A stretch of DNA of 49,413 bases from a virus, in the IMG/VR virus record IMGVR_UViG_2582580504_000002; one strand, written 5' to 3'. The notes beneath the pieces are model-generated. The model saw nothing but the letters and a program-made list of their open reading frames with translations. It made no database searches and had not been told where the DNA came from. Made by a program: the position numbers and the translations under genes. Within the stretch, counting starts at the first letter, position 1. Each line of letters begins with the position of its first letter. Positions 19,648 through 49,102 of the stretch are shown here, in pieces.

Positions 19648-20458
19648 CGGCGCCGATCTCGAGTGCCCGACCTGCGGCGCTGACCATCTCGACAGCTGGA
19701 AGAAAATAAAGATCCACCACTATCAGAGCCACGGCGAGCGCCTCGTCGAGACGTCGACGTGCGATCACTGCGGTGAGGAGTTCGAACCGACGAATAAGGG
19801 GATCTACTGCAGTATCGAGTGTCGCGCTGCGGCCAATCGGGACCGCGTCTCGTTCGAATGCGAGTACTGCGGCGACACCTTCGAGGTCCATCAGTACCGC
19901 GCGGACGAGGCGCGGTTCTGTTCGCACGAGTGTCGCGGTGCGGCCTCTCGAAAGCAAGCAACTGTCGAGTGCGAGCAGTGTGGCGACAGCTTCGAAGTAC
20001 AGGCCAACATCAGCGATGACCGTCGGTTCTGCTCGCTCCAGTGTTCGGCTCGCTACCGGCGTAACCGCGTTCGACTCGAGTGTGAGCAGTGCGGCCGCCC
20101 TTTCCACGAACACAAGTGCTTTGACGAGGTGCGGAAGTACTGCTGTCACGCCTGCCAGTACGAGGCGGCCCGGGAGACGCCCCGCGAGTTCGAGACCGTC
20201 GACGATCTCCTACACCAGCTGTACGTCGACGAGGACTGGAACTACACGAAGACCTTCCGCCGCCAGCGGGCCGTCCTCGGCGACGAAGACGCCTTGCTCA
20301 AGAAGGAGGTTCGCGAGCACCTCATTGAGATGGGCGTCTATCGGCTGGGTCATCAGCGGAGTCTGACCGAGACCGATCCCGACGAGGTCGGCGGACCGAC
20401 GCCCGATGGAGACAGTTCGTGGCGCGAGTACTACGGGGGCGAGTCGGCCGATGACTGA
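19640..20458 (+). CDS. Tandem zinc-finger array protein (CxxC-x-F/YCSxxC repeats), no HNH domain
   Basis: One C2H2 followed by four CxxC...(Y/F)C(S/C)xxC units. Confidence 0.82.
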   Translation: MSDGADLECPTCGADHLDSWKKIKIHHYQSHGERLVETSTCDHCGEEFEPTNKGIYCSIECRAAANRDRVSFECEYCGDTFEVHQYRADEARFCSHECRGAASRKQATVECEQCGDSFEVQANISDDRRFCSLQCSARYRRNRVRLECEQCGRPFHEHKCFDEVRKYCCHACQYEAARETPREFETVDDLLHQLYVDEDWNYTKTFRRQRAVLGDEDALLKKEVREHLIEMGVYRLGHQRSLTETDPDEVGGPTPDGDSSWREYYGGESADD

Positions 20459-20687
20459 GATCAACGTGCCGACCGCGGTCCGTGAGGGAACGCCGGCACA
20501 GAAACTTGTCTTCAAGGTCCTCGAGCATGCCGACGAACCGCTCGACCAGGACGCGATCGCGGATCGCTCCCTCCTTCCGAAGCGGACCGTCCGGGAAACA
20601 CTCAGCGACCTCGAGGACGCCGGTGCCGTCACGTCGGTCACGTACATGCCGGACACCCGCAGGAAACTCTACCAAATTGATAAGTGA
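20451..20687 (+). CDS. MarR/TrmB-like winged-helix protein
   Basis: AQKLVFKVLE..PLDQDAIADRSLLPKRTVRETLSDLEDAG...DTRRKLY. Confidence 0.85.
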   Translation: MTEINVPTAVREGTPAQKLVFKVLEHADEPLDQDAIADRSLLPKRTVRETLSDLEDAGAVTSVTYMPDTRRKLYQIDK

Positions 20688-20770
20688 CCTATTGGGTCGC
20701 TATACTGCGCTTTATTTACTAATAAACGCTATGTGGTAGGTAACAAGCCGGCGTTGACAGCGCCGGTTCC
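20688..20770 (+). promoter_or_regulatory. AT-rich promoter with small inverted repeat and GC hairpin
   Basis: TTTATT-tact-AATAAA and CCGGCG-ttgacag-CGCCGG ahead of ATG 20790. Confidence 0.45.
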
Positions 20771-20789
20771 TCACAGATACTTCTCAACC

Positions 20790-21455
20790 ATGTCCGCAAC
20801 ACCAACCTCGAGCGACAGGTACCAGTGTAACCACTGCGGCGACTACGCTCCGGTCCACTCCTTCTTCGACGCGGCGATGTGTTCGGAGTCCTGTCGCCGA
20901 GCAGCGGACGCGGAGCCGATTATCAACACGATCAAACACGATCACACAACGTGCGTGACGTGCTTCCGCCGACTCAAGGTCATCGAGAAGCCGCCGGAAC
21001 GGGCCCCGTCGGCTGCAGTCGGCTTCCAGTACCGGACGGAGAACGCCACTTGGGGGGAGAAACAGCGTTCGTCCAGATCGCCGAGCGATGATCCAGACCT
21101 CCCATCGCTCAACCAGCAGGTCTACGCCTACGAGGTTCAGGACGAGACGTCCAGCGAGATCCGGGAGTACTACCCCGGCCGTCGGTACGATCGCGCCAAC
21201 GAACTCGAGCCAATGCCCCAGGCGAACGAACCGATCAAGACTGGGACGGTCTGCCACGTGTGCGGGAACTCGGAACACAACGTCGTCGATCCGGACCTTC
21301 GATCGAACTGCTCGACGATGCTGGTCGGCCATCACTTCACCGAGCGCGTTCGCGAACTCCCAGACAAGTCGATCGACGAACAGCGGTTCTGGGACACCTA
21401 CACGGAAGCGGACCGATCGATCCAAGACGCCGTCGAAGCGGCAGTGATCCTCTGA
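20790..21455 (+). CDS. Cys-rich zinc-binding hypothetical protein
   Basis: CNHC..CSESC, CVTCF, CHVCG motifs. Confidence 0.78.
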   Translation: MSATPTSSDRYQCNHCGDYAPVHSFFDAAMCSESCRRAADAEPIINTIKHDHTTCVTCFRRLKVIEKPPERAPSAAVGFQYRTENATWGEKQRSSRSPSDDPDLPSLNQQVYAYEVQDETSSEIREYYPGRRYDRANELEPMPQANEPIKTGTVCHVCGNSEHNVVDPDLRSNCSTMLVGHHFTERVRELPDKSIDEQRFWDTYTEADRSIQDAVEAAVIL

Positions 21456-21682
21456 TGCGAACCTACAGCGGTGACCCGATCGACGGCACGGTCCAGCACA
21501 TCTCCGAGCGACCGGCCCTCGAGGACGAGGCCGACGACGTCGTCTACGCGACCGACCCGGAGGACGCCGGCGAAGAGCGTACCGAGGGCGTCCCGGACCT
21601 CTCGGAGTCGGAGTCGGACGATGAACCGGAGCGCCCGGTCGTCAAGGGCCAGACGACGCTGCCCGAGTGGTCGTCGCTGTAG
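21455..21682 (+). CDS. Acidic hypothetical protein ending in a QTTLxxW motif
   Basis: TGATG overlap; very acidic. Confidence 0.65.
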   Translation: MRTYSGDPIDGTVQHISERPALEDEADDVVYATDPEDAGEERTEGVPDLSESESDDEPERPVVKGQTTLPEWSSL

Positions 21683-21749
21683 CTGATCCCCGATGACGGC
21701 CGCTGCCTCGGACGCTCACTATATTCGAGAGGCATGCTCGAGGGACCTC

Positions 21750-22200
21750 TACCCGCGACGAGACTGACACACCCAACGCGATCCTGCATTTGTCGTTCCC
21801 GGCAACTGGTGGTCGTGGGATCCAAACCACGGCTGGGGTTCAATTCCTCATGCCGGCCTTCCGATGACGTCGACGTCCGGCAGAGTGTCACGACCTGCCG
21901 GTAGCTGCGTGTTGCAGTTGGTCTCGAGTGGCGCTCGAGGCCCGCCGACTGAGGTAACGATGGGCTGTGACACGCCCAGATAGCTTCTCGCCGCCGCTCG
22001 AGGACTGGATCAGTCGTGTACCATGGACGGCATCTCTTCGATCGTCGCCACCGATCGACGCAGCCAATCTCCCGACCGACGCGAGTTCGTCTCTAGCGAT
22101 CAGGATCAGGAATCTCTGGTCGGTTTCGATCCACATAGCGCCACGAGCGCGGCGAGTACGCGGTGAGGGTTCGGCCGTCGTCTACCCTCGGGACAACCGA
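21750..22200 (+). ncRNA. Candidate large structured non-coding RNA
   Basis: TATA CTTATATT at 21718-21725; consecutive hairpins; complementary loops GTGTCAC (21885-91) and GTGACAC (21967-73); no convincing ORF. Confidence 0.55.
21798..21858 (+). ncRNA. tRNA-like domain (acceptor stem, T-arm and a single additional arm; about 60 nt)
   Basis: CCCGGCA/TGCCGGC acceptor (6 of 7 pairs), TGGGG-TTCAATT-CCTCA T-arm, CGTGG-GATCCAAA-CCACG arm; too short for a full cloverleaf. Confidence 0.55.
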
Positions 22201-22332
22201 GAGGATGGCGGCTCGCTCAGAGTGCCCGAGCGAAAGCGAGGAGATCGCTCGAGCGACCTACGGCCGCGAACCACACCCAGAGCCAGTCCGCTTTCCGTAC
22301 GCGACCATCCTGTAGTTTTCCATACCAGACAC

Positions 22333-24619: not shown

Positions 24620-25378
24620 ATGGCAGCACCAGACGAGTTCCACGACGACGTCCATCCTGACGCCCGGGAGATCACGGGCGATCGCCGGTACGGCGAGTGG
24701 GGACAGTGCGTCGCGACCGCCAAGTCGACCGGCGAGCGCTGCCGTGGCTACGCTCAGGGCCCGCACGGGAAGTGTTCGACTCACGGTGGCTCCGAGGACT
24801 CCGGGGCCCCCGAGGGCAACTCGAACGCCGAGGGGAACGCCGGCGGTGACGGCGCCGAGGAGGGGAACACTCGAGCGGTCACCCACGGCGCCTACGCTGA
24901 CGAGAACTCCTTCTATCAGGACGTCCTCGATGACGATCTCCGCGACCTCGTCGACGATATCTGCGAGGACTACACCGAGCGCTACGAGCAGCGCCACGGT
25001 GAAGAACCGCCCGTCGGCCTCGAGATGGAGCTGTTCCGACTCTCGGTCTCCCACGTCAAGGACGTCGTCCTCGATCGGTGGGCGACCGAGAAGCCGGACA
25101 GCCTCGAGTCAGGGAACCCGTTGGTCGACCGCGAGACGGAGCGGGACTTCAACCCCGAAGACGGATCGGTCGTCGTCGAGTCGTACAAGGAATCGGTCGT
25201 CCTCACCGCACAGAAGCGCCTCTCGACCGACCGCCGGCAGTGGCTGAAGGATCTCGGCCTCCTGGACGATCCCGAGTCCCAGAAGGCCGAGGCGATGGAG
25301 GGCGGCTTCGAGTTCACGCTCTCGAGCGAGGACAAGCAGGAACTCGAGAATCGGTACGACGCTGAACCACAGACATGA
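24620..25378 (+). CDS. terS: Terminase small subunit
   Basis: CSTHGG..GAPEGNSNA..NTRAVTHGAY motifs; directly upstream of TerL. Confidence 0.82.
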   Translation: MAAPDEFHDDVHPDAREITGDRRYGEWGQCVATAKSTGERCRGYAQGPHGKCSTHGGSEDSGAPEGNSNAEGNAGGDGAEEGNTRAVTHGAYADENSFYQDVLDDDLRDLVDDICEDYTERYEQRHGEEPPVGLEMELFRLSVSHVKDVVLDRWATEKPDSLESGNPLVDRETERDFNPEDGSVVVESYKESVVLTAQKRLSTDRRQWLKDLGLLDDPESQKAEAMEGGFEFTLSSEDKQELENRYDAEPQT

Positions 25379-47638: not shown

Positions 47639-47798
47639 CGCTTACAGATGAATTATAGTACACCACAAAAATAGTTTGTCAGAGATCTGCTCTAACGACT
47701 GAATCAGTCCTCAGACAGGCTCAAGCCAACTGATTCAGTTGTGTCTGTGTGTTGTCTGGGGATGATGATATGTAGTTCTGTGCTGTTTGGATGGAAGC
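46763..47798 (-). mobile_element. ~1.04-kb mobile cassette (recoded recombinase tail + nuclease gene)
   Basis: Begins immediately after the TGG codon at 47801-47799, ends next to the stranded original tail; lower GC than its flanks. Confidence 0.8.
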
Positions 47799-48635
47799 CC
47801 AGCCGAACATCGCCTGCAGCGCCGGTGCTTCAAGTCCTTTCCCTGCCACGTGGCTCGCAGCGGTCGCGCGGAGCCCGTGCGGTGTCGTGTCGCCGACTTC
47901 CAGCCCTTCTGCGAGTTCGAGCGACTTGTCCAAACGTCGCCGGAGGGCAGACATCGACTTGTTCCACTGGTCGAAGACGTCGAAGAACCGTTCGACGGCG
48001 ATCTCGGCTCGAGGGGACCAATCAAACGGCACTTCGCGTTCTGCGTTCTCTGTCTTCGCGCTCCACGCCTGTGATTCGGCTTCTTCGACCGATATCTGGT
48101 TCTCGTTCCGGTACTGTTCGGCGACGTCGTCGAGCGCTTTCCGGAACGCCTCAGCGTCGTCCACCGTTGCAGCGTTCTCAGCGATGGACTCCAACTGCCG
48201 ATCGAGCGCCTCCTTAGAGAGATCACTGTCGATGTGGACGATGTGTGCGGTCTGGAGCTGCCGTCGTACATCCCCCGGAACCTGCGGAACCTCAGAGAGT
48301 TGTTCTTGGAGGACCTCAAGCCGCGCCTCGGAGAGCGAGAGTTCGCTGTACTCTGACTTCTGACGAGCCTGCTGGCTACAGTAGCCGCAGCAGTCTTCTC
48401 CGTAGCCCTTGCTGCAGGGCTCGTGGTACGGCACCTCGATTCGTCTCTTCCGCCAGTTCACCCACGATTCTTGGCTATGGAGAATCTCACCGGCCCGCAG
48501 TCCGAGCCGGCCACCGACGAAGGCGACGTACTCGGCCTCGAGGCGCTGCAGTCGGTCGTCGATGCTCTTCGCACCGGCGACGAAGTGCTCAAACTCGTAC
48601 GCGTCGAGCGCGAGCTCCTTCGAGTGGGTTACCAC
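47721..48635 (-). CDS. Second tyrosine recombinase (XerC-like haloarchaeal family with a CCGYC insertion), possibly a resolvase
   Basis: RLGLRAGEI (R), AKT (K), PHGLRATAA (HxxR), FGW, AQNY (Y); GGAGGG SD before GTG 48635. Confidence 0.92.
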   Translation of the reverse strand: MVTHSKELALDAYEFEHFVAGAKSIDDRLQRLEAEYVAFVGGRLGLRAGEILHSQESWVNWRKRRIEVPYHEPCSKGYGEDCCGYCSQQARQKSEYSELSLSEARLEVLQEQLSEVPQVPGDVRRQLQTAHIVHIDSDLSKEALDRQLESIAENAATVDDAEAFRKALDDVAEQYRNENQISVEEAESQAWSAKTENAEREVPFDWSPRAEIAVERFFDVFDQWNKSMSALRRRLDKSLELAEGLEVGDTTPHGLRATAASHVAGKGLEAPALQAMFGWASIQTAQNYISSSPDNTQTQLNQLA

Positions 48636-49102
48636 GGTTCCCTCCGTTGGGCGTGTTCTGCGACCGCTGCTTCGAGGGTCTCGAGCAGCGCGGCACAGGC
48701 CTGAGTGGACTCGGTCGTCGTGACCGTCCGCTCGTCTGGATGCCACTGGATGATCCCACGCTCGTCGAGCAGCGGGAGATGGTTGTTCCGCAGCCCGGTC
48801 TTGACAGATCGGAGCGACCGCCAGTTGACGATCGCCGGATCGACGTCGTCTTCGATCGCCCCGACCTCACGCGAGAGTTCCTCGAGACGGATCATCAGCT
48901 GATCGTCTTCGTCGACGAGCTCCGCTAGCCGACGGATCGTGATGCGCCGGCGCCGTGACCCGAAGAGGTCCACAACGCCCTCGAGGTCTTCGTCGACGTA
49001 CGCCGGGTCCGGCTCGCAGCGGTCCCGGTCGTAGTACGTGTTCGGGTTTGGCCGGTCGACCACGATGTCGTGATCGCGCCGGTCCTCGGGCCCGTGCATC
49101 AT
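48629..49102 (-). CDS. Haloarchaeal winged-helix domain protein (DUF7344-like)
   Basis: LFGSRRRRITIRRL...VKTGLRNNHLPLLDERGIIQW. Confidence 0.75.
   Translation of the reverse strand: MMHGPEDRRDHDIVVDRPNPNTYYDRDRCEPDPAYVDEDLEGVVDLFGSRRRRITIRRLAELVDEDDQLMIRLEELSREVGAIEDDVDPAIVNWRSLRSVKTGLRNNHLPLLDERGIIQWHPDERTVTTTESTQACAALLETLEAAVAEHAQRREPW

Follow-up and report, generated by a model that had tools for sequence, protein, structure and literature searches.

What is a short sequence that resembles a transfer RNA (tRNA), and that cannot decode, doing in a gap between the genes of a haloarchaeal virus, only a few nucleotides (nt) in front of a large structured RNA? The question is raised by positions 21798 to 21858 of IMG/VR virus record IMGVR_UViG_2582580504_000002, a stretch of 49,413 nt that was analysed as a whole and is called the window here. 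An earlier note, made from the sequence alone, had taken these 61 nt for a tRNA mimic and proposed that it is either a processing tag for the downstream RNA or a decoy for nucleases that attack tRNAs. We compared the element with its homologs, with the t-elements of haloarchaeal hosts and with other tRNA-like elements. Judged by anatomy and context, the viral element is probably a hairpin-expanded t-element, most likely serving as a processing tag for the adjoining structured RNA.

Fold of the element in the window

The fold that had been described for positions 21798-21858 was reproduced. The acceptor-like helix consists of a C1.C72 mismatch followed by 6 base pairs (bp; CCGGCA/TGCCGG), the T-loop is UUCAAUU, and 29 nt separate the acceptor 5' strand from the T-stem. 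CCA is not encoded; TTCC comes right after the element. This three-arm structure is the unconstrained minimum free energy (MFE) fold of the window copy, at -26.3 kcal/mol. The T-arm (21834-21850) has the GTTCRANYC loop together with the G53:C61 pair, and it is one of two matches to GGTTCRANYCC in the 49-kb window, where 0.63 are expected by chance.

Programs that search for tRNA genes did not call the element. ARAGORN reported 0 tRNA genes in the window, an Rfam scan at gathering thresholds returned nothing in the window, and the Rfam tRNA model (RF00005) left the element unmatched at E<=10. With relaxed Rfam thresholds, the sole tRNA-related match of the window copy was to mascRNA-menRNA, at 22.5 bits compared with a gathering threshold of 42.5.

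Conservation of the element among related loci

Relatives were gathered by means of the conserved flanks and the neighbouring protein, which led to plasmids of N. halophilum and Natrinema sp. DC36. Further sources were IMG/VR and metagenome contigs, contigs with homologs of the downstream protein, and 152 Natrialbaceae genomes. The same non-coding region was found at 15 distinct loci (given below by their L numbers), and the tRNA-like element is present at 12 of these, on related plasmids, proviruses and metagenome contigs. With two elements in the chromosomal provirus L053, the total is 13 copies at the syntenic site.

Several features are common to all 13 copies. First, the GGGTTC-A-TCC core of the T-arm is invariant; mean column identity is 59%, and the flanks diverge. 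Conservation of the T-loop in homologous loci had been set beforehand as a point on which the proposal could fail, and it was seen in every copy. In addition, each copy has a YGGY(R)G connector motif and a closing helix, and the closing helix and the T hairpin form in the MFE fold of 13/13 copies. Finally, all copies end shortly before a CCGATGA box, the spacing from acceptor position 72 to this conserved box (CCGAUGACG) being 2-3 nt throughout. Element length ranges from 46 to 65 nt, and position 1:72 is repeatedly mismatched (C.C in the window copy, A.C in both L015 and L053a).

The sequences of the closing helix (Table 1) are wholly different between lineages, yet the two strands match each other. 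MAFFT failed to align the acceptor 5' strands in register, and strand-pairing permutation tests were used instead. In the anchor-defined test, for which the anchor was picked after the sequences had been seen, the 14 nt before the connector GG were paired with positions 65-74. The cognate strands summed to -149.0 kcal/mol versus a permuted mean of -101.2 (standard deviation 9.0), and 0 of 50,000 permutations were as good; when the test was restricted to 7 independent lineages, the identity permutation alone did as well. An anchor-free test on the whole 65-nt upstream region gave -144.1 versus -122.2 +/- 6.5, with 36 of 50,000 permutations as good. T-stem pair 49:65 also covaries (U:A in the window copy, C:G in L015 and L053b), and the G.U pairs of the stems are compatible with a + strand RNA only. 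We conclude that both the acceptor-like helix and the T-arm are genuine and have been maintained. It is the comparison between copies, not the window copy alone, that supports this statistically.

The middle arm is variable. It is missing from L053b, has 3-5 bp in L002, L030, L049 and L053a and 7-10 bp in the others, and its loops range from 4 to 9 nt. The earlier note had also seen in the window an anticodon-like arm with an 8-nt loop that contains U-CCA-A. Such an arm is real in the window copy but is not conserved in the other copies, and the names 'three-armed' and 'Trp-like' had to be given up as features of the element. Because the middle arm varies from none to 10 bp across copies, the U-CCA-A of the window is a coincidence and the element cannot decode. 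The claim that this is not a decoding tRNA was borne out, in that there is no conserved anticodon arm and neither ARAGORN nor the Rfam tRNA model calls the element. ARAGORN found nothing at the element in the relatives examined either, and the Rfam tRNA model scored true viral tRNAs nearby at 58-61 bits and never registered an element copy. Five copies touched mascRNA-menRNA at 21.9-28.8 bits, all below the gathering threshold.

We rejected a canonical tRNA as the identity of the element (0 ARAGORN genes, no tRNA-model match at E<=10, a middle hairpin of 0-10 bp in 13 copies). The element and canonical viral tRNA genes have in common the T-arm consensus and a 7-position acceptor helix, and true tRNAs lie ~400 nt downstream in sister genomes. 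The window-type element differs in that it is without a conserved anticodon arm or D-stem and is only 46-65 nt long.

GATC was noticed in the middle-hairpin loop of the window, L002, L003, L015, L017 (twice) and L037. The window loop (21819-21826) reads GGATCC, and a methylation or restriction site is possible there. As a defining feature of the element GATC was rejected, since only these 6 of the 10 copies with a well-formed hairpin have it.

The two elements of L053 (G056:C1, ~2.70 Mb, minus strand) are arranged in tandem at reverse-complement positions 1059-1108 and 1216-1261, and each is followed by a CGATGACG box. The second one is without a middle hairpin and is the sole copy recognised by the model of host t-elements described below. 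In L039 (positions 1-150), homology to the other loci starts just 5' of the element, and the DNA further upstream is unrelated and AT-rich, with an open reading frame on the opposite strand. Because the homology begins at this point, the element and the structured RNA behave, as far as L039 informs us, as a movable module.

Comparison with host t-elements

The t-elements of Haloferax volcanii, studied by the Marchfelder laboratory, are tRNA-like substrates of RNase P and tRNase Z. One of them lies directly upstream of 5S ribosomal RNA (rRNA), where the tRNase Z cut makes the 5' end of the 5S rRNA, and paired t-elements release engineered CRISPR RNAs (crRNAs) in vivo in Haloferax (PMC4326828, PMC4946936). 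The 5S-upstream t-element goes back to Hölzle et al. 2008 and 2012, as cited in PMC4326828.

We assembled a host reference set from the 5S leaders of Natrialbaceae genomes (loci L070-L102), which comprise 25 distinct sequences. All 25 read ACCGA(C/U), ..UGG.., CGYGG UUCGAUU CCRCG, N, (G/A)UCGG and CGU, followed directly by the 5S rRNA. In this set 98.8% of cells are paired, double changes occur in 6 of 10 pairs, and 0 of 500 shuffles were as good. The Natrialbaceae leader agrees with the published primer for the Haloferax t-element (PMC4326828). A Haloferax-type t-element before 5S rRNA is conserved across Natrialbaceae, and covariation is clear in both of its helices. In some Natrialbaceae genomes 5S copies stand in tandem, and every copy has a leader of its own.

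The viral element resembles the host t-elements in its anatomy, with an acceptor-like helix stacked on a T-arm, a GG connector and no anticodon arm. The host acceptor CCGAC(G)/(C)GUCGG is itself common to the viral copies L015, L017 and L037. Host and viral elements both sit a few nt 5' of a structured RNA, the end of which the viral one would likewise define. They differ in that the viral element is encoded by a virus or plasmid and precedes an RNA of ~410 nt, not 5S rRNA; moreover, most viral copies, that of the window included, have an additional connector hairpin of 4-10 bp, and their acceptor is longer (6-7 bp vs 5 in the host).

A covariance model, R1, was built from the host leaders. 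It is narrow, with 49 positions and near-invariant CCGAY/RTCGG acceptors. Run over all loci, R1 detected only the compact viral copy L053b (19.1 bits, E 0.0027). By anatomy and context the window element looks t-element-like; in profile it is, at most, a diverged and expanded variant.

The adjoining structured RNA

Directly 3' of the element lies a conserved structured non-coding RNA of ~410 nt. RNAalifold predicted 56 pairs for the 15 homologs, with compensatory changes in 25 of the 56, and an Rfam search of this RNA gave no match even at E<=10. Its 5' start is the single-stranded UCCGAUGAC; single-stranded UUCCGAUGAC (box 2, 21861-21869) opens the RNA and is followed by the long-range helix P1. 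A box C/D or K-turn reading of the CGAUGA...CUGA around P1 was assessed by eye and dropped, because L002 and L037 show that the CUGA is not conserved and because the geometry is wrong for it. Weak blast matches of the structured RNA in 11 further Natrialbaceae genomes were rejected because they do not contain the conserved core.

The structured RNA is present at all 15 loci, 12 of which have the tRNA-like element, and the whole non-coding block is absent from the relatives L014/L018, L031 and L032. In L033, L034 and L052 there is a single CCGATGA box, which holds the TGA stop of the upstream open reading frame and leads directly into the structured RNA. The element-bearing genomes have two boxes, in the window at 21690 and 21861, so that CCGATGACG forms a direct repeat (21690-21698, 21861-21869) that brackets a spacer and the tRNA-like element. 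The single box of element-free relatives, compared with the two boxes of element-bearing ones, suggests that the segment from box to element is an inserted or duplicated cassette, or one that was lost through repeat-mediated deletion. The segment from box 1 to the element was also considered as a second small RNA, and it showed no conserved structure (consensus energy -2.26 kcal/mol). An exact scan of genome contigs for the box pattern gave only chance matches in bacteria or in soil metagenome-assembled genomes.

True tRNA genes occupy the interval between the structured RNA and the next gene in some relatives (Trp in L002, Phe and Tyr in L030, Met and Trp in L033), and none are found there in the window. 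Several of these tRNAs, although of differing identity, start with one shared GAGTCG acceptor strand. In L003, L015, L029 and L039, only GAGTCG and a GC hairpin stand at the tRNA spot.

Proposed role and alternative explanations

Given these observations, we propose the following course of events. A + strand transcript would carry the tag as the immediate 5' neighbour of the ~410-nt structured viral RNA. Host tRNA-maturation enzymes, which recognise the stack of acceptor and T-arm and its elbow, may then act on it, with RNase P predicted to cut at the 5' edge of the element (~21797/21798) and tRNase Z after the discriminator-like C21858 (~21858/21859). With these cuts the downstream RNA would acquire a fixed 5' end, beginning UUCCGAUGACG, and would be parted from the upstream early-gene transcript. 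The by-product would be a tRNA-like RNA of ~61 nt, to which CCA might be added. In the relatives that have true tRNA genes on the 3' side, RNase P could trim that side of the structured RNA too.

A role as a processing tag is the most probable one because the fold is conserved, the closing helix covaries, the spacing to the structured RNA is tight, the element is like the host 5S leader, and an attachment site (attP) is excluded. The earlier suggestion of a tag that matures the downstream RNA fits this anatomy, that is, a distance of 2-3 nt to a conserved structured RNA in the layout of the host 5S t-element. The type of element is already known from host t-elements and, by analogy, from mascRNA and the herpesvirus units described below; what would be new is the viral, hairpin-expanded form next to a structured RNA. 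Our literature search found no virus-encoded, hairpin-expanded t-element that is linked to a large structured RNA lacking an Rfam family. More tentatively, and with doubts of our own, we suggest that the tag and the ~410-nt RNA may be parts of a single non-coding RNA system, not described before, in temperate tailed haloarchaeal viruses. The tRNA machinery of the host, acting on a t-element 5' and, in some relatives, on true tRNAs 3', would excise a large RNA that acts in trans, for instance in late-gene control or packaging.

Several results weigh against a processing tag. The fold of the window copy is not significant by itself (z = -1.65), and 14 of 200 shuffles fold as well. A complement of at least 6 of 7 bases to the 3' strand arises in ~66% of shuffled upstream windows, a count that has no power in such GC-rich DNA. 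In a cruder chimera test on whole MFE, cognate and swapped tails could not be told apart (6354 of 50,000 permutations were as good). In L003 and L039 the canonical acceptor is degraded and closure is achieved through an alternative 5' strand or helix. In the window copy R1 aligned the T-arm alone, at 5.4 bits, and it left the hairpin-bearing copies undetected. No conserved archaeal promoter was evident 5' of the element in the alignment of relatives, in which the TATA-like box at 21718-21725 is not conserved. Finally, the tag is dispensable for the structured RNA, because L033, L034 and L052 carry that RNA without any tRNA-like element.

Among other explanations, a tRNA mimic with a different role is unlikely. 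It would act as a decoy or sponge for elbow-recognising factors, such as acceptor-modifying toxins, the CCA-adding enzyme or modification enzymes, or as a 5' stabiliser of the downstream RNA. The conserved parts of the element are exactly the elbow and the acceptor helix, the 1:72 mismatch recurs, and haloarchaeal proviruses are under defence pressure, all of which would suit such a mimic. A free-standing decoy, however, does not account for the invariably close junction with the structured RNA, nor for the 5S-leader parallel; CCA is not encoded, and nothing else at the locus points to an interplay with toxins or defence. A decoy for anticodon nucleases is unlikely because no anticodon loop is conserved, which leaves anticodon-cutting nucleases without a target.

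We consider it rather unlikely that the element is a now functionless evolutionary relic, be it a viral tRNA gene in decay or a host t-element once captured, which an insertion between the two CCGATGACG boxes may have left behind. If it were, the T-arm core would hardly be invariant in 13 copies when the spacer just 5' of the element is almost unalignable, nor would the pairing of the closing helix survive complete sequence turnover or the distance from position 72 to the box be held at 2-3 nt. Copies derived from different tRNAs would also need an independent loss of the same arm each time. What speaks for decay is that real tRNAs come and go in the intergenic slot (Trp in L002, Phe and Tyr in L030, Met and Trp in L033, none in the window), with only the GAGTCG-plus-hairpin remnant in some genomes where relatives have tRNAs. 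The single box without an element in L033, L034 and L052 fits insertion or deletion between direct repeats, L003 is hybrid-looking with a poorly paired acceptor, and the fold statistics of a single copy are weak.

An attP, a partial tRNA copy for recombination by an integrase into a host tRNA gene, is very improbable and was rejected, as the element is internal in an integrated provirus, far from the integrases and without a match to a host tRNA. There is a halovirus precedent, in that the poorly folding 'tRNA-like gene' of HF1/HF2-group haloviruses is an attP, located next to the integrase and matching a host tRNA (PMC8707807, PMC7230728). The window element shares with it a short, low-scoring tRNA-like sequence without a normal tRNA fold in the genome of a haloarchaeal tailed virus; the HF1/HF2 sequence differs in lying beside the integrase and in matching the 3' 57 nt of a host tRNA, neither of which is true of the window element. 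The two tyrosine recombinases encoded in the window also speak for an attP, and the lineages differ in their 3' strands, as if these came from different tRNAs. Against this, ~20 kb separate the element from either integrase, and the 22-mer of T-arm and acceptor has 0 exact matches in one genome for each of 185,579 species or in IMG/VR. When up to 2 mismatches are allowed, the N. salsiterrestre host genome (G002) contains no copy other than the element itself. One provirus is integrated in a chromosome contig of 4.29 Mb (G039:C1), and there the element is internal: homologs of the window genes at 20367-21682 lie upstream of it and the small and large terminase genes downstream.

Comparison with tRNA-like processing elements outside the archaea

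A processing tag has parallels outside the archaea. The tRNA-like element of mascRNA (MALAT1) and MEN-beta (RF01684) is vertebrate and nuclear, and RNase P and tRNase Z define an RNA end there. Like the viral element, it has a reduced anticodon region and adjoins a long non-coding RNA; no other Rfam family was touched by the viral copies. It differs in position, as the mascRNA-type element is found at the 3' end of the long RNA and the viral element at the 5' end. All scores of viral copies are under 42.5. Nothing points to common descent. In the tRNA-like/precursor microRNA units of murine gammaherpesvirus 68, the tRNase Z cut falls 3' of a tRNA-like element of the virus. A non-decoding tRNA-like element thereby lies directly 5' of a functional small RNA that host tRNase Z releases, as is proposed for the haloviral RNA. 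The differences are the eukaryotic host, the use of RNA polymerase III, the hairpin products of ~60 nt and the cloverleaf, which is kept.

Genomic context and coordinates

The window corresponds to CP031301.1, a circular plasmid of Natrinema thermotolerans A29 of 49,411 bp (window coordinate = record coordinate + 6875), and its G+C content is 62%. It encodes two tyrosine recombinases (556-1944 and 47721-48746), ParA, a C5-methyltransferase and Orc1/Cdc6. A late module of tailed-virus genes begins with the small terminase (24620-25378) and continues with the large terminase, portal, minor tail protein and tape measure. Because the recombinases, ParA, Orc1/Cdc6 and this late module are encoded together, the window is, on its gene content, a temperate tailed haloarchaeal virus maintained as a plasmid. 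The tRNA-like element lies inside a gap of ~650 nt without an annotated gene, from the stop of a small acidic open reading frame (21682) to the start of a 200-amino-acid protein (22333), and the structured RNA has the regulatory genes on one side and, on the other, the late genes leading to the terminase genes.

A blastn search against phage records returned zero matches, whether the query was the intergenic region or the structural half of the window, and phiCh1-type records are without the element at this level. A search for sequencing runs that contain the locus listed two DNA or contig runs and no RNA run. A scan of the window for promoters and terminators of bacterial type found nothing, a type of scan that is uninformative for archaea. 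A pyrimidine-rich motif, CC(C)TACCC(G)TTTCAGTAC, was seen a few nt 5' of the element (L003:~1619-1640, L015:~1784-1806) and again upstream of true tRNAs or of the first late gene in L003, L015, L035, L049 and L052. The window has a weak version, GCTTTCCGTAC, at ~22290. This motif could be a promoter or a processing motif. The coordinates of the features are collected in Table 1.

Table 1. Features of the element-bearing locus in the window and in related loci
Feature	Position	Strand	Sequence or basis
Box 1, upstream copy of CCGATGACG	21690-21698	+	just past the stop codon (21680-21682) of the small acidic open reading frame; pattern search and alignment
Acceptor-like helix, 5' strand	21798-21804	+	CCCGGCA, position 1 mismatched; fold, cognate vs non-cognate strand tests
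Connector	21805-21810	+	ACUGGU with the conserved YGGY(R)G motif, resembling D-loop G18-G19; GG in the connector of 13/13 copies and of host 5S-leader t-elements
Variable middle hairpin ('anticodon-like' arm)	21811-21834	+	8 bp, loop GAUCCAAA; MFE fold, not conserved
T-arm	21834-21850	+	UGGGG/UUCAAUU/CCUCA; core invariant in 13 copies; U21834 may pair in the T-stem or in the middle hairpin
Acceptor-like helix, 3' strand, and discriminator-like C21858	21851-21858	+	UGCCGGC plus C; fold; predicted tRNase Z cut after 21858 +/- 1-2 nt, placed by t-element precedent
Conserved structured non-coding RNA, ~410 nt	21859-22275	+	RNAalifold, 15 homologs
Closing helix, window			CCGGCA / UGCCGG
Closing helix, L002			AGCCC / GGGCU
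Closing helix, L015			CCGACG / CGUUGG
Closing helix, L030			CCCGGCG / CGCCGGG
Closing helix, L049			CCGGAGU / GCUCUGG
Closing helix, L053a			CGCCUC / GAGGCG
Closing helix, L053b			CCGUC / GACGG
True tRNA genes in relatives	L002:5641-5716; L030:2211-2283, 2408-2480; L033:2201-2272, 2403-2478
True tRNA genes in L052	from about reverse-complement position 1711	minus

Significance

To our knowledge, t-elements are known only as a host device, in the 5S rRNA leader and at a few chromosomal sites of Haloferax, in addition to engineered crRNA release. The sole parallel that we know of for viral use of RNase P and tRNase Z on a virus's own non-coding RNA is the mouse herpesvirus. The observations on this locus carry a warning for annotation, namely that short tRNA-like matches in haloviruses are not always attP sites. 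If the proposed role is true, hairpin-tolerant variants of the t-element would be usable in haloarchaeal RNA-release tools, and an exact 5' end would be predicted for a large structured viral RNA that has no Rfam family and occurs at 15 related loci. If the element works as host t-elements do, archaeal viruses would exploit RNase P and tRNase Z to mature a non-coding RNA of their own. The interest of the finding would grow if the neighbouring RNA turned out to be a viral RNA that functions in trans.

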